Below are positions 18,528 to 54,254 of a stretch of DNA of 64,000 nt, piece after piece. A model generated the notes under the pieces. The model was not told the DNA's origin and ran no database searches. It was given only the letters and a program-made list of their open reading frames with translations. Positions within the stretch are counted from its first letter, which is position 1, and each line of letters starts with the position of its first letter. The translations under genes were made by a program, and so were the position numbers. The DNA is taken from IMG/VR virus record IMGVR_UViG_3300032285_004186; one strand, given 5' to 3'. This stretch comes from a virus.

Positions 18528-19370
18528 TTACTTTAAATCTCTACCAGCATTAATAACGGACACTGCTATAGAAGAATGAATACTCTCATAGTGATTAACA
18601 ATGACCAGATAATCTTTGATGCGATTATCTAAATCTTTGTCTAATTCAACTGCAACTTTACGAACCATGTCTTCAACAAAAACTGGATTTTCATACATCA
18701 ATTCTGTTTGATAAGCTTCATCAACTCTCTTCAAAGCATTGACAATTGGTGCTGACGAACTTTTCTCCACTGCTGTAATCAGTTCTTCGAGCCAGTACAC
18801 TTCTCCGTCTGTGCCTACATTAGCTAATTCAACGGTAACATCTGCATAAGACTGCTGATTATGTGCTCCATAATCTGAGATTTCTTTAGAACATGGACAA
18901 AGAGAAGCATAAAGAACGTTACCATGAAGATAAAATTTCTTTTCTCCATTTACTAAACGTCCTTCTAAAGAACCTTGATAATCCATGTGAGAGACTACTT
19001 TTGAAACCGGAGCTTCCTTCTTGAGAAAGTAATCAAATTTAATCTTAATATAAGCATTTTGACTCTTAAGACGATTCTTGCACTCATCCAAAAGAATGTT
19101 CATCACTTCATCAATACGATGGGTTTTATTAGCAAGAACTTCCTCTACTAGAATACGATAACGACTCATATTAGTACCCTTAACCTCTGGGGTGAGATCT
19201 GTATACATACTAATAATGGCTTTGGTTGGATTAATGGTTCCGTCTTTGCGAACAATTTCCATAGGAACAACAATATTACGAGATCCTACCTTGGGAATAT
19301 ACTTCTTAGGAAAGCCGTCTAATGTGTTTTGGATGTCGGGAATATCAGCGTTAGTTTTAATGCGTGGCAT
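18528..19370 (-). CDS. folE2: GTP cyclohydrolase IB
   Basis: 'PDIQN', 'KGTNMSR', 'SLCPCSKEISDYGAHNQQS', 'ENPVFVEDMVR' and 'ESIH'. The start MPRIK at 19370 avoids overlap with gp32. Confidence 0.93.
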   Translation of the reverse strand: MPRIKTNADIPDIQNTLDGFPKKYIPKVGSRNIVVPMEIVRKDGTINPTKAIISMYTDLTPEVKGTNMSRYRILVEEVLANKTHRIDEVMNILLDECKNRLKSQNAYIKIKFDYFLKKEAPVSKVVSHMDYQGSLEGRLVNGEKKFYLHGNVLYASLCPCSKEISDYGAHNQQSYADVTVELANVGTDGEVYWLEELITAVEKSSSAPIVNALKRVDEAYQTELMYENPVFVEDMVRKVAVELDKDLDNRIKDYLVIVNHYESIHSSIAVSVINAGRDLK

Positions 19371-19425
19371 ATTTTTATTTGGTTTTTTGTTATTATATTT
19401 TAAAGTAAACTTTTGTCTCCAAGAA

Positions 19426-20301
19426 TTAAAGATCCTTGAGAATGTCTTTGATGCGGCTGTCAACTGGAATTTCATCTTCATCTTCTGAAACGACTGTTGC
19501 TTTTTGTGGAGTTGTTTTGGCTACAGATGCTGGTACAAATGAATCTTCTTCATCTTCTTCCACTGCTACAGATTTTGTAGGTGCACTAGCTGATTCAGTT
19601 TGTCCGAGGAAGTGAATATTAAGAGCCTTGGCTACCTCTTCATAAGATTTATGTTCAAAAATAGTATCTAATGATTTGACCGAATCATAAACTGTGTCTA
19701 AATCTGGGTCTCCTTCTAATGAGGAGGGTGAGGTAAATTTAGAAGCCACATATGTAGGATATCCTCCTTCATTGGTTTCTACCTTGATACGAAGATTGCA
19801 TCCTCTTTCAGAAAGGTCAAAAATTTTCATGCCCAAATCATCTGCGTCATCTCCTGAAATAGCTGATGTGATAATCTTATCCAATTGTTTTCCAAAACGA
19901 AGAATCTTAACCTGGCCTTGATTCTCTGGATTGGTGGGGTCTTTAATGACGTAAACATTGGCAAGCCAATTTTCATTACGTTTGATGGGTTTAATACGTT
20001 CAATTTCTGCTTTGTCTTGATTGCGGTAAATCTTAGAACGATACTCATCAATAGGACAACGTTCTCCATATGTGGCTGGACACAAGCAAGAAACCAGTTC
20101 ATTGGTTACTACACTATTCCAAAGGTGATGATAATAGTGAAACAAGGTTCTTTCTGGATTTGCTAGATTCGGAATAAGACGAACAAGGTATGTCTTACCA
20201 ATTTCTAGCTTCATAAAATCTTTAAAGCTACCTCCTTCACCGGAGGTCTTTTTTGTGAGGGCTTCTTTAATGGATTCGAATAGGTTGGCGGTGTATTTCA
20301 T
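19426..20301 (-). CDS. Single-stranded DNA-binding protein (gp32-like)
   Basis: 'LVRLIP', CP...CPI, 'NVYVIKDPTNPENQGQVKILRFGKQL', 'YPTYVASKF' and an acidic tail. Confidence 0.9.
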   Translation of the reverse strand: MKYTANLFESIKEALTKKTSGEGGSFKDFMKLEIGKTYLVRLIPNLANPERTLFHYYHHLWNSVVTNELVSCLCPATYGERCPIDEYRSKIYRNQDKAEIERIKPIKRNENWLANVYVIKDPTNPENQGQVKILRFGKQLDKIITSAISGDDADDLGMKIFDLSERGCNLRIKVETNEGGYPTYVASKFTSPSSLEGDPDLDTVYDSVKSLDTIFEHKSYEEVAKALNIHFLGQTESASAPTKSVAVEEDEEDSFVPASVAKTTPQKATVVSEDEDEIPVDSRIKDILKDL

Positions 20302-21287: not shown

Positions 21288-22181
21288 CTATCTATTTACC
21301 GGGACTAGGTTTTTTGTAACCTCCATAAACAAAGGAGTGATAATTCCTCCACCAGCATGGACGTGTCCACCACCATCACAAATTTTTTCTGCAAAGTTTC
21401 CTACATTAATAGGATCTTCTTTTGTGTATTGTCTAATGCTTACCTTTTCTGATTTGCTGTTAATGAAAAAGAAAACATCCGGACGATGCCGTTGCATCAA
21501 AATGTCATTTGTAATATTAGAAAAATTTTCAGACATAATGGCCAATGTTTTCTTTTTCTTATTACCAAAATTAATATAACCTTCAAAGGTGGGTGTTTTG
21601 TCAGCTTCGTTGGTTGCTTCTTTTTTGATAAAATTAATAGCTTTTTTTTGTTCTACAGAAAATCCTTTGAATCCTGAAAAATAATCTTTGATAAATTTTG
21701 AAAAATTGTTTTTGTATTCTGACCAAAAAAGAATATTTAAGTCATAAGATTCTGGAATTTCTAAGCGATAACAATCATAATCATCCGCCAAGGCTATAAG
21801 TGTTTTTTGTGAATCTGAGCGTGCTTGAAAATTTTCTCCTTTAAAGATTTGAGCCATCAATAAAGCATTAGATGAAATAACTTTATGAATAATTTTTGCT
21901 TTATTAAATCTTGGTATGAAATCTACCGATGAATCGTGATGGTCTATAAAAGTAATATTAGACCTGTCCAAATCTGGTAAGAATTCTTCTCTCAAAGATA
22001 AATCTAAAATAAAAGTTTGACAAGGTTTATTGATTTTTTCTAAAGACTTTTTAATGTTATCAATCTGTAGGTTGTTGACACTGTCATAAGTGATGGTGTC
22101 CTCTGGCAAAGCCCATAATAATGTTAATAAGCTAACTGCTCCGTCTAAATCTTTATGAGTATATGCGTGATAACAAGCCAT
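21288..22181 (-). CDS. DHH/DHHA1 phosphoesterase
   Basis: HKDLDG, ILDL, IDHH, SIR and GGGHVHAGG. Confidence 0.88.
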   Translation of the reverse strand: MACYHAYTHKDLDGAVSLLTLLWALPEDTITYDSVNNLQIDNIKKSLEKINKPCQTFILDLSLREEFLPDLDRSNITFIDHHDSSVDFIPRFNKAKIIHKVISSNALLMAQIFKGENFQARSDSQKTLIALADDYDCYRLEIPESYDLNILFWSEYKNNFSKFIKDYFSGFKGFSVEQKKAINFIKKEATNEADKTPTFEGYINFGNKKKKTLAIMSENFSNITNDILMQRHRPDVFFFINSKSEKVSIRQYTKEDPINVGNFAEKICDGGGHVHAGGGIITPLFMEVTKNLVPVNR

Positions 22182-24248: not shown

Positions 24249-24725
24249 TTATTTTGATAAATCAATATAAATTGCTGAATTTTCAGCATGTTCCCACACT
24301 TCAACTTTTTCCACCCAACACCTATAACCATACTTGTCTGAAAGATATTGCCTAGCTGCATTGTAACACCACTCTGCTGTTTTTTCAATTCCTACACCTG
24401 ACATGACTCGAAGGTCACACCCTCCATTATCATGCAATTGAATAAAAGATGGTAACAAAGGATCATCTTCTGCAATACATAACGTATGATCAAATTGTTT
24501 TTGCAAAATAGCCTTAAGATCTTTAAGACCACCGAAGTCTACTGCCCAATTTTTATCATCTAATTTAGAACAACCAAACCAAAATTTTGCTTTAAGTTCG
24601 TAGCCATGAACATATGAACACCTTTTAGAATTTGGTCCTGCATCTAATCTTTCGTTGTCTAAACCTGCCCGCCATTGTCGAAAGGCACAGCTGCCTAATT
24701 TAATAATCTTTGTCGATTCAAACAT
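24249..24725 (-). CDS. queD: 6-carboxytetrahydropterin synthase
   Basis: 'CAFRQW', 'CSYVHGY', 'VDFGGLK', 'FDH' and 'VEVWEHAENSA' T-fold motifs. Confidence 0.85.
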   Translation of the reverse strand: MFESTKIIKLGSCAFRQWRAGLDNERLDAGPNSKRCSYVHGYELKAKFWFGCSKLDDKNWAVDFGGLKDLKAILQKQFDHTLCIAEDDPLLPSFIQLHDNGGCDLRVMSGVGIEKTAEWCYNAARQYLSDKYGYRCWVEKVEVWEHAENSAIYIDLSK

Positions 24726-26390: not shown

Positions 26391-27065
26391 TTATTCGATG
26401 TTTTGTTTGTTGATAAAATTTAAAGCCTCAGAACATGCCGGAAACAATTCACAAAAACTTTTCTTAATGTTGTCCGCTATGTCCCTGTGTTCCAGTTGAG
26501 TATCCTTTTTACATCTTAATTGTAGATAATGTATCCAGGATCTTATGTTTCCTGTCATATATAAAGTTGTCTGCACACAAAGAGGAAGAACCTTGCGAGC
26601 ACTTTCTCGGGCTCCTCCTTTGGAGATAATATATTCATACAATTCTATTCCACCTGTGACATGGTCTACAATTTTTTTAATGTCTTCTGGCTCCAAAGGC
26701 AAAATCTCTTCACTGGACTGCCTATTTTTTTCTGCTTGTTTTCTTACATCAAAGGATTCTAATCCAGTCACCACACTATATCGTTGACTAAATTCTTGAA
26801 AAGAAAAAGATTTATGTCGCAAAATTTGTGCAGATATGTCTCTGCTGGTTTGAATTTCTACAGTCATAGAAGCTTGTTCGAAAATAGACCAATGTTCGTG
26901 TTCTATACAGTATTTTATTAATTTAGAAGATGTATCTAAATTTAATTGATTAGATGGATTAGACACCCTAGCACAATAAACTATAAATTCTTCTGCTGAT
27001 AAAAATCTGGTATTATCTTCAGATCTTATATAAGGTTGTGTAATGGCTACTACTTTTGTTTGCAT
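26391..27065 (-). CDS. thyX: FAD-dependent thymidylate synthase
   Basis: ARVS, HWSIFEQ, RHKSFSFQEFSQRY, ESARKVLP and TQLEHR. Confidence 0.95.
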   Translation of the reverse strand: MQTKVVAITQPYIRSEDNTRFLSAEEFIVYCARVSNPSNQLNLDTSSKLIKYCIEHEHWSIFEQASMTVEIQTSRDISAQILRHKSFSFQEFSQRYSVVTGLESFDVRKQAEKNRQSSEEILPLEPEDIKKIVDHVTGGIELYEYIISKGGARESARKVLPLCVQTTLYMTGNIRSWIHYLQLRCKKDTQLEHRDIADNIKKSFCELFPACSEALNFINKQNIE

Positions 27066-27865
27066 AAGTCTTTAAAAATTTTAATATTGTCTTTTATAAT
27101 TTCTATTTGATCATCTGTGACTGGTTCATCAAAAATATCTATCATCTTTTGAGGAATTTTATCTTGTAAATTTTTATCAAATTGATAGGATTTTTTATAA
27201 AAACCTGACAAGACTGGATGAGAAGTATCTATACTTTCTATAAAAGAAAGTTGATTGTCTCTGTACCAACTAAATTCTAAAGGAATTCCACAACCTAATA
27301 AATGATGAGGTTTATTCTGATTAATAATTCCTTTATCCAACAAATATCTAACCAAAGATATTCGCCCGTCACTAAAAGATTTTGCTTTAGATTGAATATC
27401 TTCTCTCCAATTTCTCAAATAAAAATCATAACCAAAGCTTATTGCTATTTTATCTGCTCTTTCATTCATGAAGTGGTAAGCCTTTTCAAAATCTTCATGA
27501 CATTTGCCTTGTAAAACACCAATTTTCTTACCAGTTAACACTGATAAATCAAAATCTTTGTTAAATTTTTCATAAGAAGCCAGATTTTCTTCACAATTTT
27601 GCCAAACATCTGGCACAATATACTCATCTGGTTGGATTCTTAAGAGCCATTTGTAGTATTTTTCAAAATTAAATGCCTCTCCCAGCTCAAATAAGCTGCA
27701 GTCCATGATAATTTTGCGATCATTGTGCTCAAAAAAATCCAAATAACTCTTTGATTCTTCTAATAAATGTACCAAACAGTAGTCATAATCTGTCACGGAC
27801 TGCACCAAATCCATAATTTCCATAGGGGCTTCGTGGGCTATTTGCATATTTTTATATAATAACAT
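27050..27865 (-). CDS. TGT/DpdA-like guanine transglycosylase-fold protein
   Basis: TIM-barrel motifs in TGT order: 'IIMDCSLFE', 'IVPDV', 'IGVLQG', 'HHLLG' and 'SIDTS'; Que genes are present in the window. Confidence 0.65.
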   Translation of the reverse strand: MLLYKNMQIAHEAPMEIMDLVQSVTDYDYCLVHLLEESKSYLDFFEHNDRKIIMDCSLFELGEAFNFEKYYKWLLRIQPDEYIVPDVWQNCEENLASYEKFNKDFDLSVLTGKKIGVLQGKCHEDFEKAYHFMNERADKIAISFGYDFYLRNWREDIQSKAKSFSDGRISLVRYLLDKGIINQNKPHHLLGCGIPLEFSWYRDNQLSFIESIDTSHPVLSGFYKKSYQFDKNLQDKIPQKMIDIFDEPVTDDQIEIIKDNIKIFKDLCKQK

Positions 27866-30207
27866 TATACTCCAAACAAATCAAACAAATCTGTCTGCAC
27901 TTCTTTGCCAGTTTGAGGCAATCTCCACCCGATACAATCATAAAAACGTTCTAACGGCGGTGAAACAATCTTGTCAAACATGGTTTGATAGTCTGGTTTG
28001 ACGTGTTCTAAGAGTTCTGGTGGGTACTTTTCCATAAAAGCCATACTTTTAAAATTAAAAGCATTCTTACCTGTATAGAAATACTTTAATTTCATAGCAC
28101 TGCCAATGGATTCATATATGTGATCTAATTTAAAATGCTTAAGAAGCTTGTTAAAATGAATAGCACTGCGTGCCTGGAGAGTGGTTCCTTTGCCTATTTG
28201 ACCAAATTGATCTATCTTGGCTTCATATTTTTCATAATCTGAAATTTTGGTTCTAATTGAAATCTCTTCTACTGGCATATTGCAAAAATCTTCATGAGCT
28301 TTCTTAAAAATAGCATCTGCTTTCTTTTTATCTTGTGCTAACATAGCAAATTCAATAACACTTTTGATTAATTCCTTCACCTCCTTTGAAATAGTGGAGC
28401 GAGCTATCTCAACACCTACATATTTAAAAGGTTTCTTAGGAGTCTTACCTTCTTGATCTATAACATGCAGTATATATCTCTTCTTTTGATCAAACAAAGC
28501 CACATCACAAATAGTTTCTTGTTTGAAAACAAACCGAGCATCTGTAGATTTGAGTTCTTTTTTAGCCCAAACAATAATTTGTTCATTTAAATACTTGTCA
28601 ATTTCCTGGATAACTTGACGCGCTTCTGGTGTAATCTTGTTATCTTTGAGTAATTGAAGATTTAAGACCTTTAAAATAGGCTCCACTGAGAAATATGCCG
28701 AGTCGGTATCTCCATATCTATACAATTCTTCCTTCTTGCCTACAAAACCTCGCTGACGAGCATAATCTAATACAATTTCTGGTGCCTGTTTAGCCACTGT
28801 CTGGCCGGTTAAAGTAATACTGGCTGAGTGGTCAATGTCAAATAATGGTGAATACTTCTGAGCAAATACACCATAAATGGAATTTAAGATTAATTTGAAT
28901 ACATTTTGTTGAGTATCCAGGTTAAGGATGTCACCTTCTATCTTAATTTTCTCTTCTGGGTCTGTGATTGTTTCTGCTTTATCTATCAATTTAGACATTT
29001 CTTTTTTAGTTTGTACACGTTCTGCATACAATCTATCAATCAGCGCCGGCACAACACCTCGAAACTTCTGTGTATATAAAACATTATACTTTGAAATAGA
29101 TAATTCCTCTTTTTGTATTAGTCTATTAAACTTTTCTCCTGATAAAGTTACTAATTTTTCATTGGCTAATTTAATAGTGTATTCATTGTTTTGAATTTCT
29201 AAAATTTTTCCTATTTTGGTCTCCGGGGAAATGTTTAAAGTGATGATTGTATTTGGATATAGGCTGTTTGCATCATAGCTCACTACAGATTTACACAAAC
29301 CTCTCTCCGGGTCATGCACATAACCGCCTACATATTCGTCTCGAATACCATCATTCTTGAAAGTAGGTATACGATATCCTTGTAAAAGAGCTTGATGTGC
29401 TACTGCTCCGGTAATCATAGACACTTTTCCGAGAGATTGTTCAAATGGAATGAAGCCTTTATAGGACAAAGCTCTGATCAATTTAAGATATTTGAGCTTG
29501 TTTTCCATTTTAGCAAGCAATCTAACGTCTTGAATGTTATATTCTACGAATAAATCCCAGTCTGATTCTGATAATGACGCTAGATTGGTGCCACCGGTGT
29601 CTGTTTTGCCTTCTTGTAGCTCATATTCAGCGATATAATTCAAAGAATAAGACTCTCTATCTCCTCGTGCAAAGGTTTTATACACCTCCATGTAATCAAT
29701 ATTACTAACTCCACGTATATACCAGCGATCAATCATCTTGCCCATCTTATTCATAGCTACATTTTCTCTGTAGTAGATAGCTCTTACTGGTGAAAGCCTG
29801 GATGCTTCATCTTCTCCAAGGAGTTTGTACATACGATTCATTACATAGGGTACATCAAAGCCTTCTGTATTCCAACCCACCATGATATCTGGAGGGTCTT
29901 TCTCCCAGAAACTCAAAACTGATTGCAACAATTCTGTTTCTTTCTTGCAATGTGTATAAACAATATTATCTTGTCGAGGCTTGAAAGGTTTTAAACCCCA
30001 AGAATAAAATTTTTGAGAGATAGAATCAAAGATTGTTATCAAATTGATAGGATCTTTGGCTTGTTTGGGTTCTGGAAATTCACCTTGCTGACTATAACAA
30101 GAGTTAAAATAGGATGTCCAACATTGTTTGTCTTCATCCCACACCTCATAGTCTTCAAACATGTTACTATTGCGAAATTCTCCTAGTGTTATTGTTGATT
30201 CATCCAT
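27865..30207 (-). CDS. Family B DNA polymerase (gp43-like), C-terminal fragment
   Basis: ExoII WNTEGFDVPY, ExoIII YNIQDV, SYDANSLYP, KLILNSIYG, YGDTDS and KKRY. Confidence 0.95.
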   Translation of the reverse strand: MDESTITLGEFRNSNMFEDYEVWDEDKQCWTSYFNSCYSQQGEFPEPKQAKDPINLITIFDSISQKFYSWGLKPFKPRQDNIVYTHCKKETELLQSVLSFWEKDPPDIMVGWNTEGFDVPYVMNRMYKLLGEDEASRLSPVRAIYYRENVAMNKMGKMIDRWYIRGVSNIDYMEVYKTFARGDRESYSLNYIAEYELQEGKTDTGGTNLASLSESDWDLFVEYNIQDVRLLAKMENKLKYLKLIRALSYKGFIPFEQSLGKVSMITGAVAHQALLQGYRIPTFKNDGIRDEYVGGYVHDPERGLCKSVVSYDANSLYPNTIITLNISPETKIGKILEIQNNEYTIKLANEKLVTLSGEKFNRLIQKEELSISKYNVLYTQKFRGVVPALIDRLYAERVQTKKEMSKLIDKAETITDPEEKIKIEGDILNLDTQQNVFKLILNSIYGVFAQKYSPLFDIDHSASITLTGQTVAKQAPEIVLDYARQRGFVGKKEELYRYGDTDSAYFSVEPILKVLNLQLLKDNKITPEARQVIQEIDKYLNEQIIVWAKKELKSTDARFVFKQETICDVALFDQKKRYILHVIDQEGKTPKKPFKYVGVEIARSTISKEVKELIKSVIEFAMLAQDKKKADAIFKKAHEDFCNMPVEEISIRTKISDYEKYEAKIDQFGQIGKGTTLQARSAIHFNKLLKHFKLDHIYESIGSAMKLKYFYTGKNAFNFKSMAFMEKYPPELLEHVKPDYQTMFDKIVSPPLERFYDCIGWRLPQTGKEVQTDLFDLFGV

Positions 30208-30220: not shown

Positions 30221-30619
30221 TTAAGATTTTTTTCTTATTTTAATTTTATGATCATCCTTATATCGCATGCCGTATGTTTCAATGTCCCAAAAGAATATCT
30301 TTAGAGGATTCTCTAATGCCTCAGGTTTATGTATTTCATCTCTAAAAGAAGAGAGAAGAAACTCCTGCTCGCAACTTAAATTGTGAAACAATCTCTTGAT
30401 AGGAGTTTCGTTAACAAATTTGTTTCGTTCAAATTGATTTTTAAACTTAACTTTCTTTAAAGGTGTATTAAAGATAGATAATGCGTCTGCACCATAAGCG
30501 GATTCTACAAATAAATGCGGTTCGTAGCTAGATTCTAATTTGATTCTCTTTCCGTTTTTGTCCCATGTCCAGAGATGAATACATTGTTTAGCAGAATCAT
30601 AAAAGACATTTCGATACAT
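30221..30619 (-). CDS. Family B DNA polymerase, N-terminal fragment including ExoI
   Basis: gp43-like N-terminus 'MYRNVFY...YEPHLFV' and ExoI 'FWDIET'. Confidence 0.88.
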   Translation of the reverse strand: MYRNVFYDSAKQCIHLWTWDKNGKRIKLESSYEPHLFVESAYGADALSIFNTPLKKVKFKNQFERNKFVNETPIKRLFHNLSCEQEFLLSSFRDEIHKPEALENPLKIFFWDIETYGMRYKDDHKIKIRKKS

Positions 30620-31969: not shown

Positions 31970-32722
31970 CTATACTCGAAGAGCTTTATCCCATACCATT
32001 AAATGCAATCGAGGTGACATTTTAAAACCATATTCCTTGCAAATCTCTGCTACTTCTTCTGCATTTTGTACATGTTCCTGTCTTGAACCTGCACACACCA
32101 TGATCCATATCCTATTTCGATGAATCATGAGAGAGGGATGATTGATGTATTCCACAAATAATTCTTGTATGTCTTCTTTTGTTTTGACCACAAATTTAAA
32201 ACAAGACCTGTTTTTTACATGAAACTTCAACGCTTCTGTATTATATCTTTTTTCTTTAGCATCACCGTTGCTTGAAAGTTTGGGTGAGGTTGTAAAAGTG
32301 GCGTGATATTTGTCTATCCAATCTTTTTCCGGCAGAATAGAACCATTGGTTTCAAAATCTATCCTCGGTAAAAACCCGTATCGATCCCAAAATGCTTGCA
32401 CAAAATTTAAAAGAGGTTTTTGCCTAAGCATCGGTTCACCTCCTGTAATTTTCCATATATCACCTCTGCGAAGTTTGTCTACTAGACTGTTTTCTTCATA
32501 AAATTTAAACATGTCCTCAAAACTGTATTTGTTTTTCTTAGACCAAGAGATATAAGAGTCACATCCCCAAGGTGAATCAGGAGAAGCCCAACCTTTACAT
32601 GTTAAATTGCATCCAAATAACCGCATGAACACACTTGGATGACCTATATACTCTCCTTCTCCTTCAATAGTATGAAATCCGGGACCATCATCACTGATTA
32701 ATAAATAATTTTCTTCTGACAT
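31970..32722 (-). CDS. queE: 7-carboxy-7-deazaguanine synthase (radical SAM)
   Basis: 'TIEGEG..IG.PSVFMRLFGCNLTC', ITGGEP, ETNG, SPKL, FKFVV and SPRLH. Confidence 0.92.
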   Translation of the reverse strand: MSEENYLLISDDGPGFHTIEGEGEYIGHPSVFMRLFGCNLTCKGWASPDSPWGCDSYISWSKKNKYSFEDMFKFYEENSLVDKLRRGDIWKITGGEPMLRQKPLLNFVQAFWDRYGFLPRIDFETNGSILPEKDWIDKYHATFTTSPKLSSNGDAKEKRYNTEALKFHVKNRSCFKFVVKTKEDIQELFVEYINHPSLMIHRNRIWIMVCAGSRQEHVQNAEEVAEICKEYGFKMSPRLHLMVWDKALRV

Positions 32723-32731: not shown

Positions 32732-34549
32732 TTATTGCAAAATTTTAGTAACGCCATCTTGTTTCTCTAAAAGAATAATTTGATCTATTCCAGATCGGTC
32801 TGCTGCTTTGTTATGAGAGACAATGTATATACTTTCTTGATAAGTTTCTACTCTACTTTTTAAAATATTCAGGATTTTATCCACTCCCTTTTCATCCAAG
32901 GCTGAATCAAACAATTCATCATACATACTCAAGGAAAAAGATGTACCGGCTTGCATGCGAAGAATGTCTTGAAACATAAAAAGAATAGCTAGATCTATAC
33001 GCTTACGTTCTCCACCACTAAAATTAAAATAAGAACACTCTATTCCTCTTTCATTGTAAATAGTCTCTTCGAATGTCTCATTAAATTCACATTTGCAAGG
33101 AGCTTCTAGCGCCTGGAGATAAAAATTAAGTTTTGAATTAAGAACATTTAATAATTTTTTAATAATAAAGGTTTTTACTCCTTCTTCTGAAACTATAAAT
33201 TTAGCCGATTCTAAGATGTTTATTCTTTTTTGAGTTTCTGTCAATTTATCTTCCAATTCTTTGTTTTTAATTTCTGCATTTTCTCTTAAATTTAAAAATT
33301 GATCAGGTTCTTTTTCTATTTCTTCTATATCTGATAGAATTTCTGTATTTCTGTTTTCTAATTGTTTAATTTCTTGAGAGACTAAATTTAAAGAATTTAA
33401 TTCTTTTTCATGTTTTTTAATATCTGTTTTTAAAGAAGATATGGCATCACAGATAGTGTCACAATTAGATTTTTGAACGTTTAATTCTTTGGTGGTTAAT
33501 TTTAAAAGTTCTTGATCTATTTTAACGTTGGAATCTAAATCTTGTATGAGCTGATTAATATGTATTTCATCAATACCTTCTATGTCTTGTTTACATACTG
33601 GGCAAGTTTTAGTAGTCTGCTGAAGTTTTTTGATTTCTTCTTTATTGGATCTAATGGAAATATTTAAAGAGTTTATTTTTAAATTAAAATCAAAAGTTTT
33701 TTCCGAACATTCTATGGATAGTTTTTCTAATTGTTCTATTTTAGATTCTTTCTTAGAAATGATTTTTGTTAAATTAACTCTTGCTTGTTCAACTCCTTCT
33801 GTGTCTGAATTTTTTTCATTTAGAGATTTAATGTTTAAAAGATTGTCTTCTATTTTTTCTTTTAAATTTTTAATTTTATTCTTTTTATTTTCATTCCACT
33901 TATCTGATTGTTTTTTATAAGCTTCTAAATTTTTTTGATTTTCCAAAAAATTAGAACTATCTTGTTCATTTTGTTTTTTAAAATCATTTAAGTCTGCTCG
34001 AACTTGAAGTAGCATATCTCCAAATATGCCTAAATGAAGAACTCCTTCTACAAATTTGCGTTTATCCACTTTTTTCTGTGCCATAAAAGGCAAGGTATTA
34101 TTTGCGGTCATGATAACTGCATTTTGAAATACTTCTTCATTGGCTCCTATCAATTCTTTAACCAATTCATCTGTTTTAGGCATAGATGAACGAGTAATAT
34201 CTTGCCCGTTACATAAAAGTTCCACTTTATTTGGTTCCACTTTTCTAGATAAAACATAACTATCTATTTTATCTTGATGACTAATATCAAAATAAACTTC
34301 CACACAACAATTTTTTCCGGTCTTGTTGTGGACTATCATGTCTCTTTTGAGTTCTCTTATAGTACTCCCAAATAATCCCCAGTAAAGAGATTCTATTATT
34401 GTACTTTTCCCGACCCCATTGCGTCCACCCTTATCCCTATTTTCCCCGGTAATAAGAGTAATGCCACTGGTAAAATTTAATTTTAATGTATCTTCCCCTA
34501 CGGAAAGAAAATTGTTTATTTTTATCTCTTTAAAGATAACTTTTTTCAT
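32732..34549 (-). CDS. Recombination ATPase (gp46/Rad50/SbcC-like)
   Basis: NFLSVG, NGVGKS, CPVC zinc hook, FSGGE, YDELFD and VSH. Confidence 0.95.
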   Translation of the reverse strand: MKKVIFKEIKINNFLSVGEDTLKLNFTSGITLITGENRDKGGRNGVGKSTIIESLYWGLFGSTIRELKRDMIVHNKTGKNCCVEVYFDISHQDKIDSYVLSRKVEPNKVELLCNGQDITRSSMPKTDELVKELIGANEEVFQNAVIMTANNTLPFMAQKKVDKRKFVEGVLHLGIFGDMLLQVRADLNDFKKQNEQDSSNFLENQKNLEAYKKQSDKWNENKKNKIKNLKEKIEDNLLNIKSLNEKNSDTEGVEQARVNLTKIISKKESKIEQLEKLSIECSEKTFDFNLKINSLNISIRSNKEEIKKLQQTTKTCPVCKQDIEGIDEIHINQLIQDLDSNVKIDQELLKLTTKELNVQKSNCDTICDAISSLKTDIKKHEKELNSLNLVSQEIKQLENRNTEILSDIEEIEKEPDQFLNLRENAEIKNKELEDKLTETQKRINILESAKFIVSEEGVKTFIIKKLLNVLNSKLNFYLQALEAPCKCEFNETFEETIYNERGIECSYFNFSGGERKRIDLAILFMFQDILRMQAGTSFSLSMYDELFDSALDEKGVDKILNILKSRVETYQESIYIVSHNKAADRSGIDQIILLEKQDGVTKILQ

Positions 34550-34613: not shown

Positions 34614-35603
34614 TTAAGTCATCTGCTCTTTAATCCACCAGTATACATTATATATTCCTTTGTGTAAAGGGTAATTTGGCTTCCAATTTAACTTCTTAAA
34701 AATTAAATCATTGTCTGAATTTCTGCCACGAACTCCAAGAGGTCCACTAATATGTTTTTTAACTAAGGTTTTATTTTCCATAGAAGCTGCCACATCAACA
34801 AGTTGATTTATGGTAATCATCTCATCTGATCCAATATTTAATGGTTCGGTAAAATCTGATTCCATTAATCTTCTTACTCCTTCTATACATTCATCTATAT
34901 ATAAAAATGATCTGGTCTGTTCCCCATCCCCCCAGATTTCAATTTCTTCTCCGTCTTTTGCAGTCAATACTTTACGGCAAATAGCAGCCGGGGCTTTTTC
35001 TCTTCCACCTTGCCAGGTACCCATTGGACCGAAAATGTTATGAAATCTGGCTATGCGAACATTTAGTCCGTGATTTCGAGCATATGCCAAATAAAGACGC
35101 TCACTAAATAATTTTTCCCATCCGTATTCGCTATCAGGTGCAGCTGGATAAGCGGATTCTTCAGAACATTTAGGATTATTAGGATCTTCTTGATTATATG
35201 CCGGATACATACAAGCACTGCTAGAATAAAAAACTTTTTTGACATTGAATTGTCGGCACAATTCTGCTATATTCAGGTTAATTTGAGCAGAATTATGCAT
35301 AAGATTTGCATCATTATTTCCACTAAAAATAAATCCAGCACCACCCATGTCAGCAGCTAGTTGATATACTTCATCAAAAGAATTTTCCTTTTCTTCTAAA
35401 CTATGTTGTCCGGGGGCTAACATTAACAAAGAACTTGCTTTATAATCCCTCAAATCTGTTATAAAAAATTCATCTGCCTTTGTGGATGAAAATTCTGGAT
35501 ACTTAAGATCTGCTCCCCTCACCCAATATCCTTCTGTTTTCAGACGATTGATTAAATGATTACCTATAAATCCACCTGCACCTAAAACTAAAGCTTTTTT
35601 CAT
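34614..35603 (-). CDS. NAD-dependent nucleotide-sugar epimerase, GDP-mannose 3,5-epimerase-like
   Basis: GAGGFIG, LAADMGG, SSSACMYP, YGWEK, GGREKAPAAICRK and GVRGRNSDN. Confidence 0.88.
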   Translation of the reverse strand: MKKALVLGAGGFIGNHLINRLKTEGYWVRGADLKYPEFSSTKADEFFITDLRDYKASSLLMLAPGQHSLEEKENSFDEVYQLAADMGGAGFIFSGNNDANLMHNSAQINLNIAELCRQFNVKKVFYSSSACMYPAYNQEDPNNPKCSEESAYPAAPDSEYGWEKLFSERLYLAYARNHGLNVRIARFHNIFGPMGTWQGGREKAPAAICRKVLTAKDGEEIEIWGDGEQTRSFLYIDECIEGVRRLMESDFTEPLNIGSDEMITINQLVDVAASMENKTLVKKHISGPLGVRGRNSDNDLIFKKLNWKPNYPLHKGIYNVYWWIKEQMT

Positions 35604-35606
35604 AAT

Positions 35607-36152
35607 TTATTTTTTAATAACTAATAAACCCCTTTCACATCTTTCATTTGACAAACTACTTTTATTAAATATCAAATGTTGGATGTTCTGATTTTTAACA
35701 TACTCTATAATAGAATATAAATTTTTATAATCCACATTGGTTACATCATGATATATTAAAATTCCATCTTTTTTTAAAAGATTCAAAGTTTTATCAACCC
35801 ATTTATCTGTGTTTTGATGATCCGCGTCTGAAACTATAAAATCATATTTTTCTTTACAATTAGAAACAAAATCATATTCATTAGAATTTATGAAGTTTAT
35901 TGAAGTAATTTGTTTTATGTGTTCAAGGTTTTCTGGAGGATTGTGGTTCCAGTCTATAAAATTGTCTACGCAAGTTAAATCTAATTTTATTTGATTATAT
36001 TCATACCCGGAAATAATTTTTCTGGTAGAAGCTCCACTACCTATACCAATTTCTAAACTTTTTTGAGGTTTATTGCAAATAATTAAAGAATAAATTAATT
36101 CTAAGTGATTATTGTCCATCATCACCCAATCTGAAGTATTATATAGTTTCAT
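35607..36152 (-). CDS. Class I SAM methyltransferase (Methyltransf_24-like)
   Basis: LEIGIGSGAS, CVD, DFIVSDADH and LKKDGILIYHD. Confidence 0.85.
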   Translation of the reverse strand: MKLYNTSDWVMMDNNHLELIYSLIICNKPQKSLEIGIGSGASTRKIISGYEYNQIKLDLTCVDNFIDWNHNPPENLEHIKQITSINFINSNEYDFVSNCKEKYDFIVSDADHQNTDKWVDKTLNLLKKDGILIYHDVTNVDYKNLYSIIEYVKNQNIQHLIFNKSSLSNERCERGLLVIKK

Positions 36153-36825
36153 AAAAATGTTTGTAGTCTGCTTCTATAATTGAAATTTTATTTTCTTGCC
36201 CGGCATAATGAATTATATTGGCTTCATAACGTTTATTTTCCGGATCCGGTAAACCCATATGTATTTTGTTATAAGAAATATCCATTTCTTTATAGGGAAT
36301 TTTACTTTTTACCACCAAATAATTTAAATAAGTTTGATCCCCAAATGAAAGAATGTTGTCTATATTTGGTATATTTTTATAATCTTCAAAATATTTTTTA
36401 TGTAAATGAGAAACCAGAAAAACACCTGCATTAAAATATTTGTATTTGTTGAGATGGTTTAAAGGCCATGTTTCACAGTGTGGTAATAAGGGCTCCACAA
36501 AATCTTGTCTGCACATTTTATCAAGATTTCTATTTTCTTCAAAAGCATAAAAATAATTCTTATCATTATATTCTTCAAATATATTTTGAGCATGTGGGGT
36601 CACCAAAACATCTATATCTGTATAGCACACTTGTTCATAATCATTTAACAAATGTACAAAATTAAATTTTTCAAAGAAAATATTGGGTCCGTTTACTGTA
36701 CGTTCTAATATTAGATGAAAATCTATGTCATATTTTTGACAGTATTTTTTTAAAGAAAGAACACTTTTATTATAATCTTTATCTGCACCATCTATACCCA
36801 GAGTCATTATGGCATGTTTTTTCAT
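36139..36825 (-). CDS. Glycosyltransferase (GT-A, GT8-like)
   Basis: YTDIDV, YFNAGV, DQTYLN and IIHYAG. Confidence 0.85.
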   Translation of the reverse strand: MKKHAIMTLGIDGADKDYNKSVLSLKKYCQKYDIDFHLILERTVNGPNIFFEKFNFVHLLNDYEQVCYTDIDVLVTPHAQNIFEEYNDKNYFYAFEENRNLDKMCRQDFVEPLLPHCETWPLNHLNKYKYFNAGVFLVSHLHKKYFEDYKNIPNIDNILSFGDQTYLNYLVVKSKIPYKEMDISYNKIHMGLPDPENKRYEANIIHYAGQENKISIIEADYKHFYETI

Positions 36826-36828
36826 GAA

Positions 36829-37335
36829 TTATTTTTTAGAAGCTACACAAATAAAGGAATAATTTAAATCTTTTTCACTTACAAAAATAGTTTCTTTATC
36901 TAAAAATTTATTATCTTGTAAATATTTTTTTAAAATATTGGGTTCAAAACAATGAATATGTTTACGATTATTCCAAGGCCTCCAATATTCTTGGTCAAAA
37001 TGTGGAAGATATAAAAACAAAACTCCACCAGATTTTAATTTTGAAACCCAATAATCCAAAGCATTTACCCAATGTGGTAAGTGTTCTAGGCAGTGACTTG
37101 AAAAAATATAATCTATTTCACCTTGCGGCAAAAAATATGCATCATACCTTTTGTCTAAAAGAGGATCTATGGGTATGGAACCTGGAAAAGACCATTCCAC
37201 ACGATTACATCCAATATCATATCCTTTTCCTTTACAAAAATGTTTAGCAAATGGAAAGGCAAATTGAGAAGCAAACCCCTCAGACTGAAATTTAGGATAT
37301 AATTTTTGATTAAATTCTATTGTGTCAATTTTCAT
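36829..37335 (-). CDS. Class I SAM methyltransferase (Methyltransf_11-like)
   Basis: GYDIGC, DYIFSSHCLEH and LKSGGVLFLYLP. Confidence 0.85.
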   Translation of the reverse strand: MKIDTIEFNQKLYPKFQSEGFASQFAFPFAKHFCKGKGYDIGCNRVEWSFPGSIPIDPLLDKRYDAYFLPQGEIDYIFSSHCLEHLPHWVNALDYWVSKLKSGGVLFLYLPHFDQEYWRPWNNRKHIHCFEPNILKKYLQDNKFLDKETIFVSEKDLNYSFICVASKK

Positions 37336-37936
37336 AAATCACAGCAACTCTTCTGCCATATTGAGTATATTCAATGTTGTAATTTTTATTGATATCTAAA
37401 AGAGCTGTCTCCATTTCAATTTGAGTAGGCCATCCGGGTGTTCCAGCATCAAACGTATCATCTATTATAATAACATGATCTTTTCTGTTGGAAAAATTTT
37501 TAATAGATTTAAGCTCCTCTATCACCGGTGACTCACTAGTGTGTGCGTCTAATAAAATAAAAAATTGTTCATTAGGATTTTGAGATAGAATATTTTTTAA
37601 AAAAATTGGAGAATCTCCTTCATAAAAGTTAATATTTGGATGATTTTGTTTTAAAATTTTATAATTCTCTAACAAATTTATGTCTCTATTGTATATGTTA
37701 CCTTTAACATATTTTTCAACTGTAAAAACTTCTTTAAATTGTATTGCTAAAAATTCTGATGTCCAACCTTCATATGTACCAGTTTCTATAGCTTTATTAA
37801 TATTTAATAAACTTGGAATTTTGTCTTTAAATAAAAAAAGAATTTGCACAAAAGGGTTGGCCACATCCACACACCATGGATGAGGAATTGTTCGATGCCA
37901 TCGCGGATCTTCGGGATCTGATTTGATATATTTCAT
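37325..37936 (-). CDS. Putative SAM methyltransferase
   Basis: IETGTYEG, TVE, GDS, LLDAH and IIIDD. Confidence 0.75.
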   Translation of the reverse strand: MKYIKSDPEDPRWHRTIPHPWCVDVANPFVQILFLFKDKIPSLLNINKAIETGTYEGWTSEFLAIQFKEVFTVEKYVKGNIYNRDINLLENYKILKQNHPNINFYEGDSPIFLKNILSQNPNEQFFILLDAHTSESPVIEELKSIKNFSNRKDHVIIIDDTFDAGTPGWPTQIEMETALLDINKNYNIEYTQYGRRVAVIYEN

Positions 37937-37940
37937 AAAG

Positions 37941-38654
37941 TTAATTCATTTTTGTAAAAGATTTGTTAAAAATATAATCTATTTCTGTCCAATCTCCAGG
38001 ACGACGAGACGTAATTTCTATAATTTTTGTCTTTAAATTTAATTTTTCTATAAAAAAATTAATACAGGTATCCATAGAATAAATGCCTGTAGCATTTTCC
38101 AAAACTTTACACCAATCAAAAATAGAATATCCTTTTATAAATTGCATTTCTACACATTTCACATCTTTTGGATATTGTATATCCCATTCTAGGATATTTG
38201 GCGGTGATGCAAATTTTTTATTTACAAAAATATATTCTTCATCCTCTTTTAAATTTAAAATGTTATAAAACAAAAAATCTTCTTTGCTTTTATTGCGCTC
38301 AAATGTAAAAAAATTTAACCAGTCTTTAAATGTTAAATTAATTAAATTGTATTTTGATTCTAATATTTTTTTATGTAAAAGATGACTGGCGTTTTCTAAT
38401 GGCAAGAACAATATTTCATCATTATCTATAATTCCGGTATTTTGGTAATAATTTTTACCAGGAAAATCTAATTCTTTATTAACAAACCAAATACCATTTT
38501 TTATATAATTGCTAATATCTGAGTATTCCTCTATAACCGGCCAAATAACCGGAGTATTATATTTTTCTATTATTTTCACGCCAATTTTTTGACAAAAAAT
38601 AATATCACCCAATCCAGCTGGTTGTTTAATTAAACAAAATTTCATTTTAATCAA
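37941..38654 (-). CDS. Putative glycosyltransferase (GT-B, GT9/fucosyltransferase-like)
   Basis: N-terminal 'QPAGLGDI' and 'IFDWCKVLENA..IYSMDT'. Confidence 0.55.
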   Translation of the reverse strand: MIKMKFCLIKQPAGLGDIIFCQKIGVKIIEKYNTPVIWPVIEEYSDISNYIKNGIWFVNKELDFPGKNYYQNTGIIDNDEILFLPLENASHLLHKKILESKYNLINLTFKDWLNFFTFERNKSKEDFLFYNILNLKEDEEYIFVNKKFASPPNILEWDIQYPKDVKCVEMQFIKGYSIFDWCKVLENATGIYSMDTCINFFIEKLNLKTKIIEITSRRPGDWTEIDYIFNKSFTKMN

Positions 38655-42887: not shown

Positions 42888-43946
42888 TTAATTTTGTAAT
42901 TTTAAATATAGATCATTTAAATAATCAAATATTTCTTTTTTATGTTCTATATCCATTGCCTCTATAAAATCTAGAATGTTTTTAGATATGTCTATAGAGT
43001 CATATGTATTTTCTGATATGTTTATAGAAAGATCTTTATCTGGTACTTTATAGTCCAATCTAAAAAATTTAGGATTAAGATTTTGTAATTTAGAAGATAT
43101 TAAACTAATTTCTTCTGGTGGTAAATTAACATCTATTAAAAGACATACTAAATTATTAGGAACATTATTTCTTATAAAAGAAGAAGGTAATTCTTTAGAT
43201 AAAATTTTAGATAAAGAAATTTTAACATGTTTAGGTGAAACATTATTTAAAATAAAATCAAAATTATCTTTTTCTAAATCAAAAATATAAATACCTCTTT
43301 CCTCATCCATATCTCCAAAATTTTGTTGATATGGACTGCCTAGATATAATATTTCACCATTTTCATAATGTCGATGTGTTCTTTTGTGAAAATGGCCAGT
43401 TATAATATATTTGGCTTTGTTTAAAAGTTCAGCAGAAGTCATACCATGGTCACAGGTGGCATGATTATTCATTTTAAAGCTTTTAATTTCAAAATGTCCC
43501 ACACAGTAATCCATATTATCTGGTATATCTTTAATATCTATTCCCCACGGAATCATACACAATTTTTTAGTAGAATTAACTATTTCAAATATACGAGGTT
43601 CTTTATCTATGATTGTAATATTATTCCATCCATCAAATAAAGATATAGAATTAATATCACTTCTTTCCTTATAATAACAATCATGATTTCCGGTGGAAAT
43701 GTAAATTTTAAAATTACTGAAAATATCAAAGAATTGTTTAGCTGTGCTTAAAGTATTGACTGAAATTTCATTTCTATTATGAAATATATCACCTGGAATT
43801 AAAATTTCATTTATACCTCTTTGAGTATAAATTTCAGCAGCCCATTTTGCAAAATTTAAAATGTTAGAGTGCCACGTTTCACTGTTTTGTCCCAGACCTA
43901 TATGTATGTCTGAAAAAATTCCTATTCGTGGCCCTTTAATTTTCAT
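42888..43946 (-). CDS. Recombination nuclease (gp47/Mre11/SbcD-like)
   Basis: SDIHIG, GDIFH, GNHD, GHFE, GHFH and YLGSPYQ. Confidence 0.95.
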   Translation of the reverse strand: MKIKGPRIGIFSDIHIGLGQNSETWHSNILNFAKWAAEIYTQRGINEILIPGDIFHNRNEISVNTLSTAKQFFDIFSNFKIYISTGNHDCYYKERSDINSISLFDGWNNITIIDKEPRIFEIVNSTKKLCMIPWGIDIKDIPDNMDYCVGHFEIKSFKMNNHATCDHGMTSAELLNKAKYIITGHFHKRTHRHYENGEILYLGSPYQQNFGDMDEERGIYIFDLEKDNFDFILNNVSPKHVKISLSKILSKELPSSFIRNNVPNNLVCLLIDVNLPPEEISLISSKLQNLNPKFFRLDYKVPDKDLSINISENTYDSIDISKNILDFIEAMDIEHKKEIFDYLNDLYLKLQN

Positions 43947-49441: not shown

Positions 49442-49699
49442 ATGTCTGATACAGAATTTACACAAGAAGAAATTCAATTAATTATTGAATCGTTATTGTA
49501 TTGTGCTTCTTCTGAAATCAATCATACAAAATATCACGAAGATATAACTAGGGTTATAGAACTTGCTGTGAAATTGCGCCTCAAACATCAGGACATTCCG
49601 TTAGATAATGTTTATTATTTCGATGGTAAAGTATTTACTTGTCCTTATGTAGATGAAATAAACAAATTCTTTCCGGAAATAAGATATACTGATTTATGA
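49442..49699 (+). CDS. Hypothetical protein
   Basis: 85-aa ORF. Confidence 0.55.
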   Translation: MSDTEFTQEEIQLIIESLLYCASSEINHTKYHEDITRVIELAVKLRLKHQDIPLDNVYYFDGKVFTCPYVDEINKFFPEIRYTDL

Positions 49700-50328
49700 A
49701 AATTGCTGTAGTAGGAACTCAATGTATAGGTAAGTCTACTTTTATTAAAGACTTTCTCAAAAAATGGCCGATGTATACCACGCCGGAAAAAACTTATAGA
49801 GATGCAGTTAAGGAAAAAAATATTTCCATTAATCGTGAAGGTACAGAAGAATCTCAGCAAATTATTTTAGATTTCTTGGTGGATCAAGCTTTGTCTTGTT
49901 CTAAATCTGAAAATGTTATATTTGATAGATGTGTATTAGATAATTTGGCTTATTCTTCTTGGTTGAATTTAAACAATAAGGTTTCTGACAAATTTCTAGA
50001 TCAGTCTAGAATTTTAGTAAGAGAAACTTTAAAGATGTTTGATATTATTTTCTTTCTTCCTATTACCAAGGTATCTCCAGTTGCTATAGTGGAAGATGGT
50101 GTGAGGGATATAGATCCTACTTACAGAGAAGAAATAGATAACATTTTCAAGGTCTTTGTTAAGTCTTATCAATCCGGAGATGGAAGAGTATTTCCTAAGG
50201 GTGATAGCCCTCCAATTATAGAAATATACGGGAGTCCGGAACAGCGCATTGCCTTGACCTCTATGTATATTACTGAAGAAGGCAAACCATACGGAGAAGA
50301 ACAAAGTCTCATAACAGACATTTATTAG
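49696..50328 (+). CDS. P-loop nucleotide kinase-like protein (AAA_28 / NadR-like)
   Basis: 'KIAVVGTQCIGKST', 'FDRCVLDNLAY' and 'EDGVR'. Confidence 0.75.
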   Translation: MKIAVVGTQCIGKSTFIKDFLKKWPMYTTPEKTYRDAVKEKNISINREGTEESQQIILDFLVDQALSCSKSENVIFDRCVLDNLAYSSWLNLNNKVSDKFLDQSRILVRETLKMFDIIFFLPITKVSPVAIVEDGVRDIDPTYREEIDNIFKVFVKSYQSGDGRVFPKGDSPPIIEIYGSPEQRIALTSMYITEEGKPYGEEQSLITDIY

Positions 50329-52874: not shown

Positions 52875-53618
52875 ATGGATAGTGCAAACAACGACAAGAT
52901 TTGTGTAGTTTTATATAGTGGAGGCATGGATAGTACTGTAGTTTTGCATCATGCTTTAGCAAACTATAACAAGGTTTATGCCCTAGCTTTTGATTATGGA
53001 CAGAGGAACATAAGAGAATTGACCGGAGCTGAAAATTACATCACAAATTATATTTTAAAATCTTCTTATGCAGAGAAATTAAAGTATTCTCGTATGCCCT
53101 TACCGGTAAAATTTTTAAATTTTAATTCTGCATTAACAGATGAGAATATAGAAGTGCCTAAAATGAAAGAGGTTATTGGTGATCCACAAAATGTAGCGTA
53201 TGTTCCAAATAGAAATATGATTTTTTTGTCCCTAGCGGTGGGCATGGCGGAAAGTGTCGGCGCGCCTGATGTTTTATATGGAGCAGCCAAGGCTGACGAC
53301 ACTTCAGGTTTTTGGGATTGTACACCAGATTTTAGAAATTATCTTAACACTATTCTTTCTCTTAATCGTAGAAATCGTATAGAGATTAAAACTCCTTTAA
53401 TAGACAAAACAAAAAAAGAAATTATCGAATATGGTTTAGAATTGGGTGTAGAGTTTGGTTGGACAAGAACCTGTTATACAGAACATGAAAATTCTTGCGG
53501 AGAATGTCCAAGTTGTTCGGCTCGAATTGCCGGTTGGTTACATACAGGTAAGATAGACCCATTGAAATATTCTAGAGAAATTGATTGGCAAAAATATAAT
53601 TGTCAATCAATATACTAA
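52875..53618 (+). CDS. queC: 7-cyano-7-deazaguanine synthase
   Basis: SGGMDS, FDYGQR, YVPNRN, DC, TRTCY and CGECPSC. Confidence 0.95.
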   Translation: MDSANNDKICVVLYSGGMDSTVVLHHALANYNKVYALAFDYGQRNIRELTGAENYITNYILKSSYAEKLKYSRMPLPVKFLNFNSALTDENIEVPKMKEVIGDPQNVAYVPNRNMIFLSLAVGMAESVGAPDVLYGAAKADDTSGFWDCTPDFRNYLNTILSLNRRNRIEIKTPLIDKTKKEIIEYGLELGVEFGWTRTCYTEHENSCGECPSCSARIAGWLHTGKIDPLKYSREIDWQKYNCQSIY

Positions 53619-53621: not shown

Positions 53622-54254
53622 ATGTGTGGCATAGCAGCAGCTCCAACGTTTGAAAAGGCTTTTAATTTATACAGATTAAATTTACATCGAGGCAGTTATT
53701 CTTCTGGCTTAATGTCTGTAGATACTAAGACAGGTGCTTATTTTATATATAAACAACAAAAAGCATTTGAAGAAATAGAATCTTTGCTTTGGAAGATAGA
53801 ACAAAGTAGAAATAATTTTGATTACTTTCTTTTTCATTCAAGAGCCCCCACCAACAGCACAGAAACACTATGGACTGCAGAAACTACTCATCCTTTTGCA
53901 TATGATAATTGTCATGTAGCCCACAATGGTATTATTACAAATTTTCAAGAACTTAATAAAGATTTGAATTTTAATGTAGACACACAAATAATACCATACA
54001 ATCTAATAAAGACATACAATATACAAGAAACATATTCCAACTTGCAAGGATTGCTTACTAGTTGGATAGTTTGGGGTAAAGATGTACATGTAATTAAAGC
54101 TGGTAGCTCTTTATGGATGGACAAAGATTCTTTTTCTTCTTCAAAATTTGAAGGTGCTCACTACATAGAGGAAGACGGTGTAATATTTAATTATATTAAT
54201 AATAAATTTGAAAAAAGTGGAACATTTCCTTATACAAGTACATATTTTATATGA
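53622..54254 (+). CDS. Class II glutamine amidotransferase (stand-alone)
   Basis: N-terminal MCGI, RG, HSRAPT, THPF, AHNGIITN and VDT. Confidence 0.88.
   Translation: MCGIAAAPTFEKAFNLYRLNLHRGSYSSGLMSVDTKTGAYFIYKQQKAFEEIESLLWKIEQSRNNFDYFLFHSRAPTNSTETLWTAETTHPFAYDNCHVAHNGIITNFQELNKDLNFNVDTQIIPYNLIKTYNIQETYSNLQGLLTSWIVWGKDVHVIKAGSSLWMDKDSFSSSKFEGAHYIEEDGVIFNYINNKFEKSGTFPYTSTYFI

Follow-up and report, generated by a model that had tools for sequence, protein, structure and literature searches.

The gene between polymerase and thyX

The IMG/VR virus record IMGVR_UViG_3300032285_004186 is a 128,659-bp metagenomic contig, estimated to be ~60% complete, of which a stretch of 64,000 nucleotides (hereafter the window) was analysed here. 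On the minus strand of the window, between a family-B DNA polymerase gene and thyX, an open reading frame (ORF) of 271 amino acids at 27050..27865 encodes a protein that almost certainly belongs to the DpdA3 family of transglycosylases. We propose, with a probability of about one half, that this enzyme exchanges the base on a free deoxynucleoside or deoxynucleotide rather than on duplex DNA. The ORF lies in the window as the first-pass annotation had described it, with MDCSLFE at residues 54-60 of its product. The same annotation had the gene overlapping both of its neighbors, which holds for thyX, the ATG of which (27065) sits 16 nt within the 3' end of the DpdA3 ORF. On the polymerase side, the first ATG of the ORF (27865) overlaps the polymerase TAA by a single base (TAATG); however, the homologs start at the second methionine (MQIAHEAP; xMxIAHEAP), which is M7 here (position 27847), and the gene as called in the database (P0001) has 265 amino acids. 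To judge from these comparisons of sequence, translation probably begins at M7 (27847), for a product of 265 amino acids, probably leaving a 17-nt spacer after the polymerase stop, so that the overlap with that stop is probably unused.

Standard models do not detect the protein: Pfam and NCBIfam scans gave no match, the PF01702 (TGT) hidden Markov model (HMM) did not match it at E <= 1, and searches of PDB sequences with phmmer and with a profile returned only an insignificant DpdA match (E 0.76). At the nucleotide level, 24 kb of the window had no megablast match among phages. In PHROGs it falls in phrog_19058 (2e-38), the function of which is not annotated there. A tblastn search of 50,697 phage records gave matches in 19, namely four records of Flavobacterium phage vB_FspM_immuto (41.7% identity, 1e-48, annotated DpdA) and 15 of Campylobacter phages, 14 of which belong to the CP220 group (~35% identity, 35.9%; ~3e-34) and one of which, CC_R7, is a weaker match (26% identity, 6e-7). 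The matches to the immuto and CP220 proteins span 89-96% of the query. The family is well represented in metagenomes: the protein collection contains at least 576 homologs (E <= 1e-3), and IMG/VR has 590 or more loci. The initial description of the gene as a divergent DpdA is thus borne out, with 42% and 35% identity to the immuto and CP220 proteins, and the family already has a name. The DpdA3 subfamily was named by Cui, Hutinet et al. (NAR 2023, PMC10516641), in whose work HHpred alone detected it, with members in Cellulophaga phage phiST (CGPG_00065), Flavobacterium phage immuto_2-6A (gp65) and Campylobacter phage CP220 (gp056). The present gene is an additional member and, as an annotation, an ordinary one. 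In that study all three DpdA3 phages tested (phiST, CP220 and immuto_2-6A) had 100% of their G replaced and other DpdA subfamilies replaced at most ~30%; DpdA3 expressed in E. coli gave no detectable DNA modification, attempts to obtain activity failed, and free ADG nucleoside was detected in CP220-infected cells (PMC10516641). We found no later paper testing DpdA3.

An AlphaFold2 model of the protein, built from 48 homologs, reaches a predicted local distance difference test (pLDDT) value of 92.3 and consists of eight beta-alpha units arranged as a (beta/alpha)8 TIM barrel. In an exhaustive structural search, the top four matches were ArcTGT (1iq8, Z 18.1), DpdA (7ui4, Z 17.2), bacterial TGT (3unt, Z 17.1) and QTRT2 (Z 15.8), with the best unrelated TIM barrel at Z 14.4 and Cap10 at Z 14.1; Foldseek retrieved TGT at E 2.5e-8. 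The TGT barrel supposed at first reading is therefore what structure prediction returns, with the catalytic Asp triad in place. D55, D86 and D213 are invariant in the 48 homologs, as are S57 and E60, and the invariant residues are located at the C-terminal ends of strands. In the profile alignment behind the insignificant DpdA match (E 0.76), HHLLG and IDTS match H234-L236 and D256 of DpdA; D55-x3-F59 parallels DpdA D95-x3-F99, and D86, L190 and D213 correspond to D130, L236 and D256, respectively. The hhalign comparison with the single E. coli TGT sequence has a probability of only 3.4%, in the same register at GVxQG, KPxxLxGxG and the nucleophile Asp. By analogy with the residue roles in DpdA (PMC10164549), D55 (with F59) would act as general acid/base, D86 would recognize the base and D213 would be the nucleophile, Q119 and L190 also being kept. 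R50, R168, K185, H187, H188, K236 and K240 are conserved too and might form a closed site for a 5'-phosphate. This correspondence of conserved motifs with DpdA and TGT indicates that the catalytic machinery for double-displacement base exchange is intact in DpdA3.

The surroundings of this active site are another matter. In DpdA, the insertions Ins1 and Ins8 make a positively charged crescent that grips double-stranded DNA, Ins8 (128 residues, 30% of DpdA) being pinned by a Zn site and bearing the essential F265; in TGT, Ins3 and Ins8 grip the anticodon stem-loop. The polynucleotide-binding insertions Ins1, Ins3 and Ins8 are all absent from the DpdA3 model, in which the beta1-alpha1 loop has four residues and ~37 residues lead from beta8 to the last helix (128 in DpdA). 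The lack of a cysteine zinc cluster, remarked upon in the first-pass annotation, extends to the family: in the 48 homologs there is neither a CxCxxCx22H motif nor a conserved Cys/His cluster after beta8, and of the six cysteines of the present protein only C192, in HHLLGCG, is nearly conserved. The homologs are also uniformly acidic (median pI 5.4, median net charge -9.5). As modeled, DpdA3 is essentially a bare barrel.

The P-loop kinase and its pairing with DpdA3

The P-loop kinase that had been singled out at 49696..50328 exists as a gene, 22 kb from DpdA3 in the window, and its product has a nucleoside/nucleotide-kinase fold. Human deoxyguanosine kinase (Z 16.0) is the closest structural match to its model (pLDDT 87), and further matches include the NadR ribosylnicotinamide kinase domain (RNK), deoxyadenosine kinases and thymidylate kinases (TMPK), the last two at Z 14-15. 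The protein is homologous to immuto gp68 (4e-19) and CP220 gp057 (7e-18), both encoded next to DpdA3. A second AAA_28 kinase of 177 amino acids, 25% identical to the first, is encoded past the window end (G000:C1:99544-100077). Both paralogs match the HMM of DpdA3-linked kinases (125 and 117 bits), and two kinases would fit the successive phosphorylation of a nucleoside and then of its monophosphate. All 27 kinase sequences compared keep Walker A, a DR(x)3D(x)3Y motif and the lid Arg unchanged. From its predicted structure, the P-loop protein is a small-molecule nucleoside/nucleotide kinase and not a DNA ATPase.

The association of such a kinase with DpdA3 is frequent. We fetched 80 of the at least 590 DpdA3 loci of IMG/VR and called the kinase by tblastn and by HMM, in agreement. 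A homolog is present in 55 of the 80 loci; DpdA3 and its paired kinase never lie on opposite strands, and the kinase follows DpdA3 by 0-30 nt or comes ~540 nt downstream, past the formyltransferase DpdN. In an unbiased clustering of the neighboring ORFs within 4 kb, the kinase ranks second (52 loci) after QueF (57 loci), FolE, QueE, QueD and QueC being found in 28-34 loci each. When the family is divided at 50% identity, ten of 13 clades contain the DpdA3-kinase pair and the remaining three constitute the T4-like PolB-DpdA3 lineage, where the kinase is encoded elsewhere. Two T4-like relatives tested have two kinase copies each, as the present genome does, and all five near-complete DpdA3 genomes tested encode the kinase above the Pfam cut-off. 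None of the 18 DpdA1 loci used as a control (phage 9g and relatives, 374 kb) has it. The pairing of DpdA3 with a kinase is new in the present analysis.

In several loci the pair is accompanied by a nucleotide hydrolase. CP220 has the order HD-P-loop protein (gp055), DpdA3, kinase (gp057), and the pair is also found in immuto. An NTP hydrolase lies directly upstream of DpdA3 in CP220 (the HD-P-loop fusion) and in locus L109 (MazG), an NTP pyrophosphohydrolase takes this position in immuto and in five IMG/VR loci, and a dUTPase/MazG-like gene is found near phiST DpdA3. In L109, dUTPase and MazG precede DpdA3, and an AAA_28 kinase and QueF follow it, in the order MazG/DpdA3/x/kinase. CP220 gp055 (L004:10868-11899) consists of an HD phosphohydrolase fused to a P-loop domain and is a candidate bifunctional dGTP-degrading or kinase enzyme; tblastn found no homolog of it in the 80 IMG/VR loci. 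The DpdA3 of L109 (L109:6001-7761, P0121) is itself part of a 586-aa fusion, the one such protein that turned up when longer fused forms were sought, and is preceded by an N-terminal domain of ~310 residues for which language-model features only suggest LPG_synthase_C or a FemAB-like GNAT; this domain has no bearing on the substrate.

A similar arrangement extends to the Bacillus phage BSTP12 and the Weizmannia phage Youna2, in which a P-loop protein is followed by a very divergent DpdA3-like gene and then by PolA. The P-loop protein shares Walker A and DR..D..Y with the DpdA3-linked kinases (hhalign 84% for BSTP12). The DpdA3-like gene of BSTP12 (gene 038, L089:4896-5684) is annotated 'NadR trifunctional protein' and encodes a divergent DpdA3-like barrel (hhalign 98.8%), and that of Youna2 (L090:4935-5705) is annotated hypothetical. 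Both run into the beginning of PolA, and neither keeps Q119 (GVxQG motif).

Genome context and synthesis of the base

The record belongs to a T4-like phage with UvsX, UvsY, gp32, gp41-like, gp46/47-like and gp55-like genes, and the window includes a set of genes for 7-deazaguanine synthesis (Table 1). Record searches with PF01227, PF04055 and PF01702 missed FolE2, QueE and DpdA3, which were found with other models. Relatives at 41-49% identity keep the order PolB-DpdA3-(ThyX)-UvsX-QueD-DnaB-gp32-FolE2; their polymerase is encoded by a single 857-aa PolB gene, which is split here.

Table 1. DpdA3, its neighbors and the genes of base synthesis and phosphorylation in the window
Feature	Position	Strand	Evidence
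FolE2-type GTP cyclohydrolase I	18528..19481	-	Pfam GCHY-1 8.4e-65
QueD (6-carboxytetrahydropterin synthase)	24249..24725	-	Pfam PTPS 1.3e-14; phrog_2389 9e-31
ThyX thymidylate synthase	26391..27065	-	Pfam Thy1 4.8e-46
DpdA3-family transglycosylase	27050..27865	-	immuto DpdA3 42% identity, TIM-barrel model, invariant Asp triad
Family-B DNA polymerase main fragment, 780 aa, directly upstream of DpdA3	27865..30207	-	Pfam DNA_pol_B 3.9e-25, exo1 2e-16
N-terminal piece of split PolB, 132 aa, ending ...FWDIETY	30221..30619	-	ORF
QueE-like radical SAM enzyme	31970..32722	-	phrog_2076 1.5e-48; weak Fer4_12 match
Deoxynucleoside kinase (dNK)/TMPK-fold nucleoside/nucleotide kinase	49696..50328	+	Pfam AAA_28 8.4e-13; phrog_2107 'thymidylate kinase'
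QueC	52875..53618	+	Pfam QueC 1.8e-53
Stand-alone class-II glutamine amidotransferase (GATase)-like protein beside QueC	53622..54254	+	GATase_6 2.2e-4; phrog_4736 2.6e-13

No homologs of the immuto QueF, DpdN, phosphoribosyltransferase (PRTase) or NTP pyrophosphatase (NTP-PPase) were found in the 128-kb record, and DpdL was likewise not found. The 7-deazaguanine base made by the phage is thus probably preQ0, ADG or G+. The GATase-like protein may represent the Gat half of a Gat-QueC that is split here; fused Gat-QueC proteins are encoded by phage 9g and BSTP12. On the plus strand, at 52875-55553, QueC and the GATase-like gene are packed together with genes for a glycosyltransferase-like protein (Glyco_tranf_2_5, 3.4e-8) and a DUF366 protein (9.4e-17), and the genes of this cluster may further decorate the 7-deazaguanine. 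An island on the minus strand (34614-41356), with the gp46-like gene (32732-34549) on one side and the gp47-like gene (42888-43946) on the other, encodes an epimerase, several methyltransferases and GT2/GT7/GT8-like glycosyltransferases. A DHH/DHHA1 phosphoesterase gene (21288-22181, minus strand) comes after the DnaB-like gene, a position kept in the T4-like DpdA3 relatives, and is a candidate for a nucleotide-hydrolysing step. At 46643-47071 (plus strand), where the block of minus-strand genes gives way to plus-strand genes, lies a gene for a SegE-like GIY-YIG homing endonuclease (2.2e-28).

Base exchange before or after replication

In the route that we propose, the phage would supply the 7-deazaguanine base via FolE2, QueD, QueE, QueC and the GATase-like protein. 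DpdA3, optionally preceded in the pathway by an NTP pyrophosphatase, would form a covalent Asp213-deoxyribosyl intermediate and exchange guanine for this base, the acceptor being free dG or dGMP and not duplex DNA. The dNK/TMPK-like kinases of the phage (49696-50328 and its paralog) would then phosphorylate the product, the host nucleoside diphosphate kinase (NDK) would raise it to the triphosphate, and the neighboring PolB would incorporate it, leading to near-total replacement of G. The presence of a kinase fits a deoxynucleoside or a deoxynucleoside monophosphate as substrate better than dGTP.

This route is favored by the kinase pairing, by the acidic protein devoid of polynucleotide-binding elements, and by three published results: DNA was not modified on heterologous expression, infected cells contained free ADG nucleoside, and G was totally replaced. 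A nucleotide-level exchange had already been suggested in the first-pass annotation; the kinase pair, the minimal acidic barrel and the 18 DpdA1 loci devoid of the kinase speak for it, while the record has yielded no dGTP-removing enzyme. A related view has a longer history: Crippen et al. once proposed a modified-dGTP route for Campylobacter phages and Hutinet et al. mentioned possible undetected deoxyribosyltransferases (PMC6884629), but the modified-dGTP view was dropped after DpdA3 had been recognized as a TGT homolog (PMC10516641). Adjacency to the polymerase was considered as a further sign of a nucleotide route and rejected, because the DNA-acting DpdA1 of phage 9g also sits beside polymerase and clamp genes. 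With even odds, then, DpdA3 would be the first TGT-fold enzyme to exchange the base of a free deoxynucleoside or deoxynucleotide and would found a pre-replicative pathway of total G replacement.

Several points weigh against the nucleotide route. To our knowledge, all characterized TGT and DpdA enzymes use polymers (tRNA, DNA or, for Cap10, protein) and none a mononucleotide. HD/MazG dNTPase searches found none in the 128-kb record, which is ~60% complete, and HD/MazG matches are rare in five near-complete relatives; with no dGTP-removing enzyme found, the exclusion of dGTP is left without an explanation. The kinase is missing from the fetched flank in 13 of the 80 loci, and in five such records, all of them fragments (6-49% complete), it was found nowhere. 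Members of its family turn up in 89 records of Streptomyces phages as well, of which the single one checked has no QueC, and exclusivity of the kinase to DpdA3 phages is thereby ruled out. Together with a PRTase, the kinase could instead recycle the released guanine into GTP. Finally, in the work that defined the subfamily, DpdA3 is taken to insert the base after replication (PMC10516641).

Given these caveats, post-replicative exchange on DNA stays a strong rival, which may well be correct even though we lean against it. DpdA3 would then be an unusually efficient DNA guanine transglycosylase that flips G out of freshly replicated phage DNA and puts the 7-deazaguanine base in its place, and the linked kinase, with a PRTase in some loci, would salvage guanine to GTP for FolE. 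The homology to DpdA and TGT with the catalytic triad kept, the published assignment (PMC10516641), the modification of plasmid DNA in E. coli by 9g DpdA1, whose gene adjoins those for polymerase and clamp, and the failure to find a conserved dGTPase in the present genome or in most complete relatives are all in keeping with it, and a PRTase in 19-22 of the 80 loci would fit guanine salvage. However, the acidic DpdA3 has none of the elements of the DNA-binding surface of DpdA (Ins1, Ins8, F265 and the Zn site), other DpdA subfamilies replace no more than ~30% of G, and attempts to obtain activity of DpdA3 on DNA failed (PMC10516641). Hosts, moreover, already own Gmk, and a salvage kinase would not be expected to be linked so often to DpdA3 instead of FolE.

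It is improbable that the P-loop protein is instead an ATP-driven helper of DpdA3 on DNA, an analog of DpdB that would compensate for the absent DNA-binding insertions. Bacterial DpdA does require the ATPase DpdB for exchange, and in many loci the genes of DpdA3 and the P-loop protein are contiguous or overlapping; however, DpdB is ParB-like and unrelated, the modeled P-loop protein matches small-molecule dNK, TMPK and NadR-RNK kinases from end to end (Z 14-16), its DR motif and lid Arg do not vary, the top structural matches include no DNA-binding ATPase, and in the window the kinase gene stands 22 kb away from DpdA3. Least probable of all is the modification of some other target (for instance a tRNA of host or phage, or a protein), with no direct role in DNA composition, since although the TGT fold serves tRNA and, in Cap10 (Z 14.1), a protein target, DpdA3 has no tRNA-binding insertions or Zn subdomain, is embedded in replication operons and marks phages with fully substituted DNA (PMC10516641).

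If the nucleotide route is true, it would account alike for the total replacement of G and for the failed DNA assays. It would also provide an enzymatic route to 7-deaza-dNTPs, of use for the sequencing and PCR of GC-rich templates and for restriction-resistant DNA. The frequent DpdA3-kinase pair makes the question of the substrate directly testable with two small soluble proteins. We know of no phages other than the DpdA3 phages in which every G is replaced by a 7-deazaguanine.

Compared with the named DpdA3s of immuto and CP220, the present protein is alike in its homology, its length of ~265 residues, the absence of a Pfam match and the co-occurrence with FolE, QueD and QueE. It differs in its setting, a T4-like genome in which a split PolB immediately precedes it and thyX overlaps it, with the kinase 22 kb off rather than adjacent and with QueC and a GATase-like protein present. 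The presence of these two proteins, with no QueF, DpdN or DpdL found, suggests that the inserted base likely differs from dDG or fdPreQ1. The DpdA of Salmonella Montevideo (7UI4) has the same TIM barrel (Z 17.2, 230 residues aligned) with corresponding active-site residues; it also has Ins1, Ins2, Ins3, Ins8, the CxCxxCx22H Zn site and F265, all of which the present DpdA3 is without, and whereas the Salmonella enzyme has a positive DNA-binding crescent and a DpdB partner, DpdA3 is acidic and no DpdB partner was identified. Bacterial TGT and ArcTGT (PF01702) likewise share the barrel and the order of the active-site motifs with DpdA3, which is without their N-terminal lid, Zn subdomain and C-terminal tRNA-binding domains.

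Replacement of a base before replication has precedents in phage T4, with the dCTPase gp56, the dCMP hydroxymethylase gp42 and the dNMP kinase gp1, and in S-2L, with MazZ and PurZ. The route proposed for DpdA3 resembles these systems in combining a nucleotide-level enzyme with a dedicated kinase, in having a MazG, NTP-PPase or HD hydrolase upstream in some loci, and in leading to total replacement, here of G. However, the enzymes are unrelated, the base would be exchanged and not derivatized, and DpdA3 phages do not have a conserved enzyme that removes dGTP. Closer in chemistry are the nucleoside 2'-deoxyribosyltransferases, which exchange the base on a free deoxynucleoside via a covalent carboxylate-deoxyribosyl enzyme: the reaction is the one proposed for DpdA3, but the fold differs and there is no homology. 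Cap10 of type IV CBASS (cyclic oligonucleotide-based antiphage signaling system) differs in having the CdnD protein as its target (complex in PDB 9NTN) and is not concerned with the modification of phage DNA; as a TGT-derived barrel that handles 7-deazaguanine on something other than a polynucleotide, it offers a precedent for a shift of substrate within this fold.

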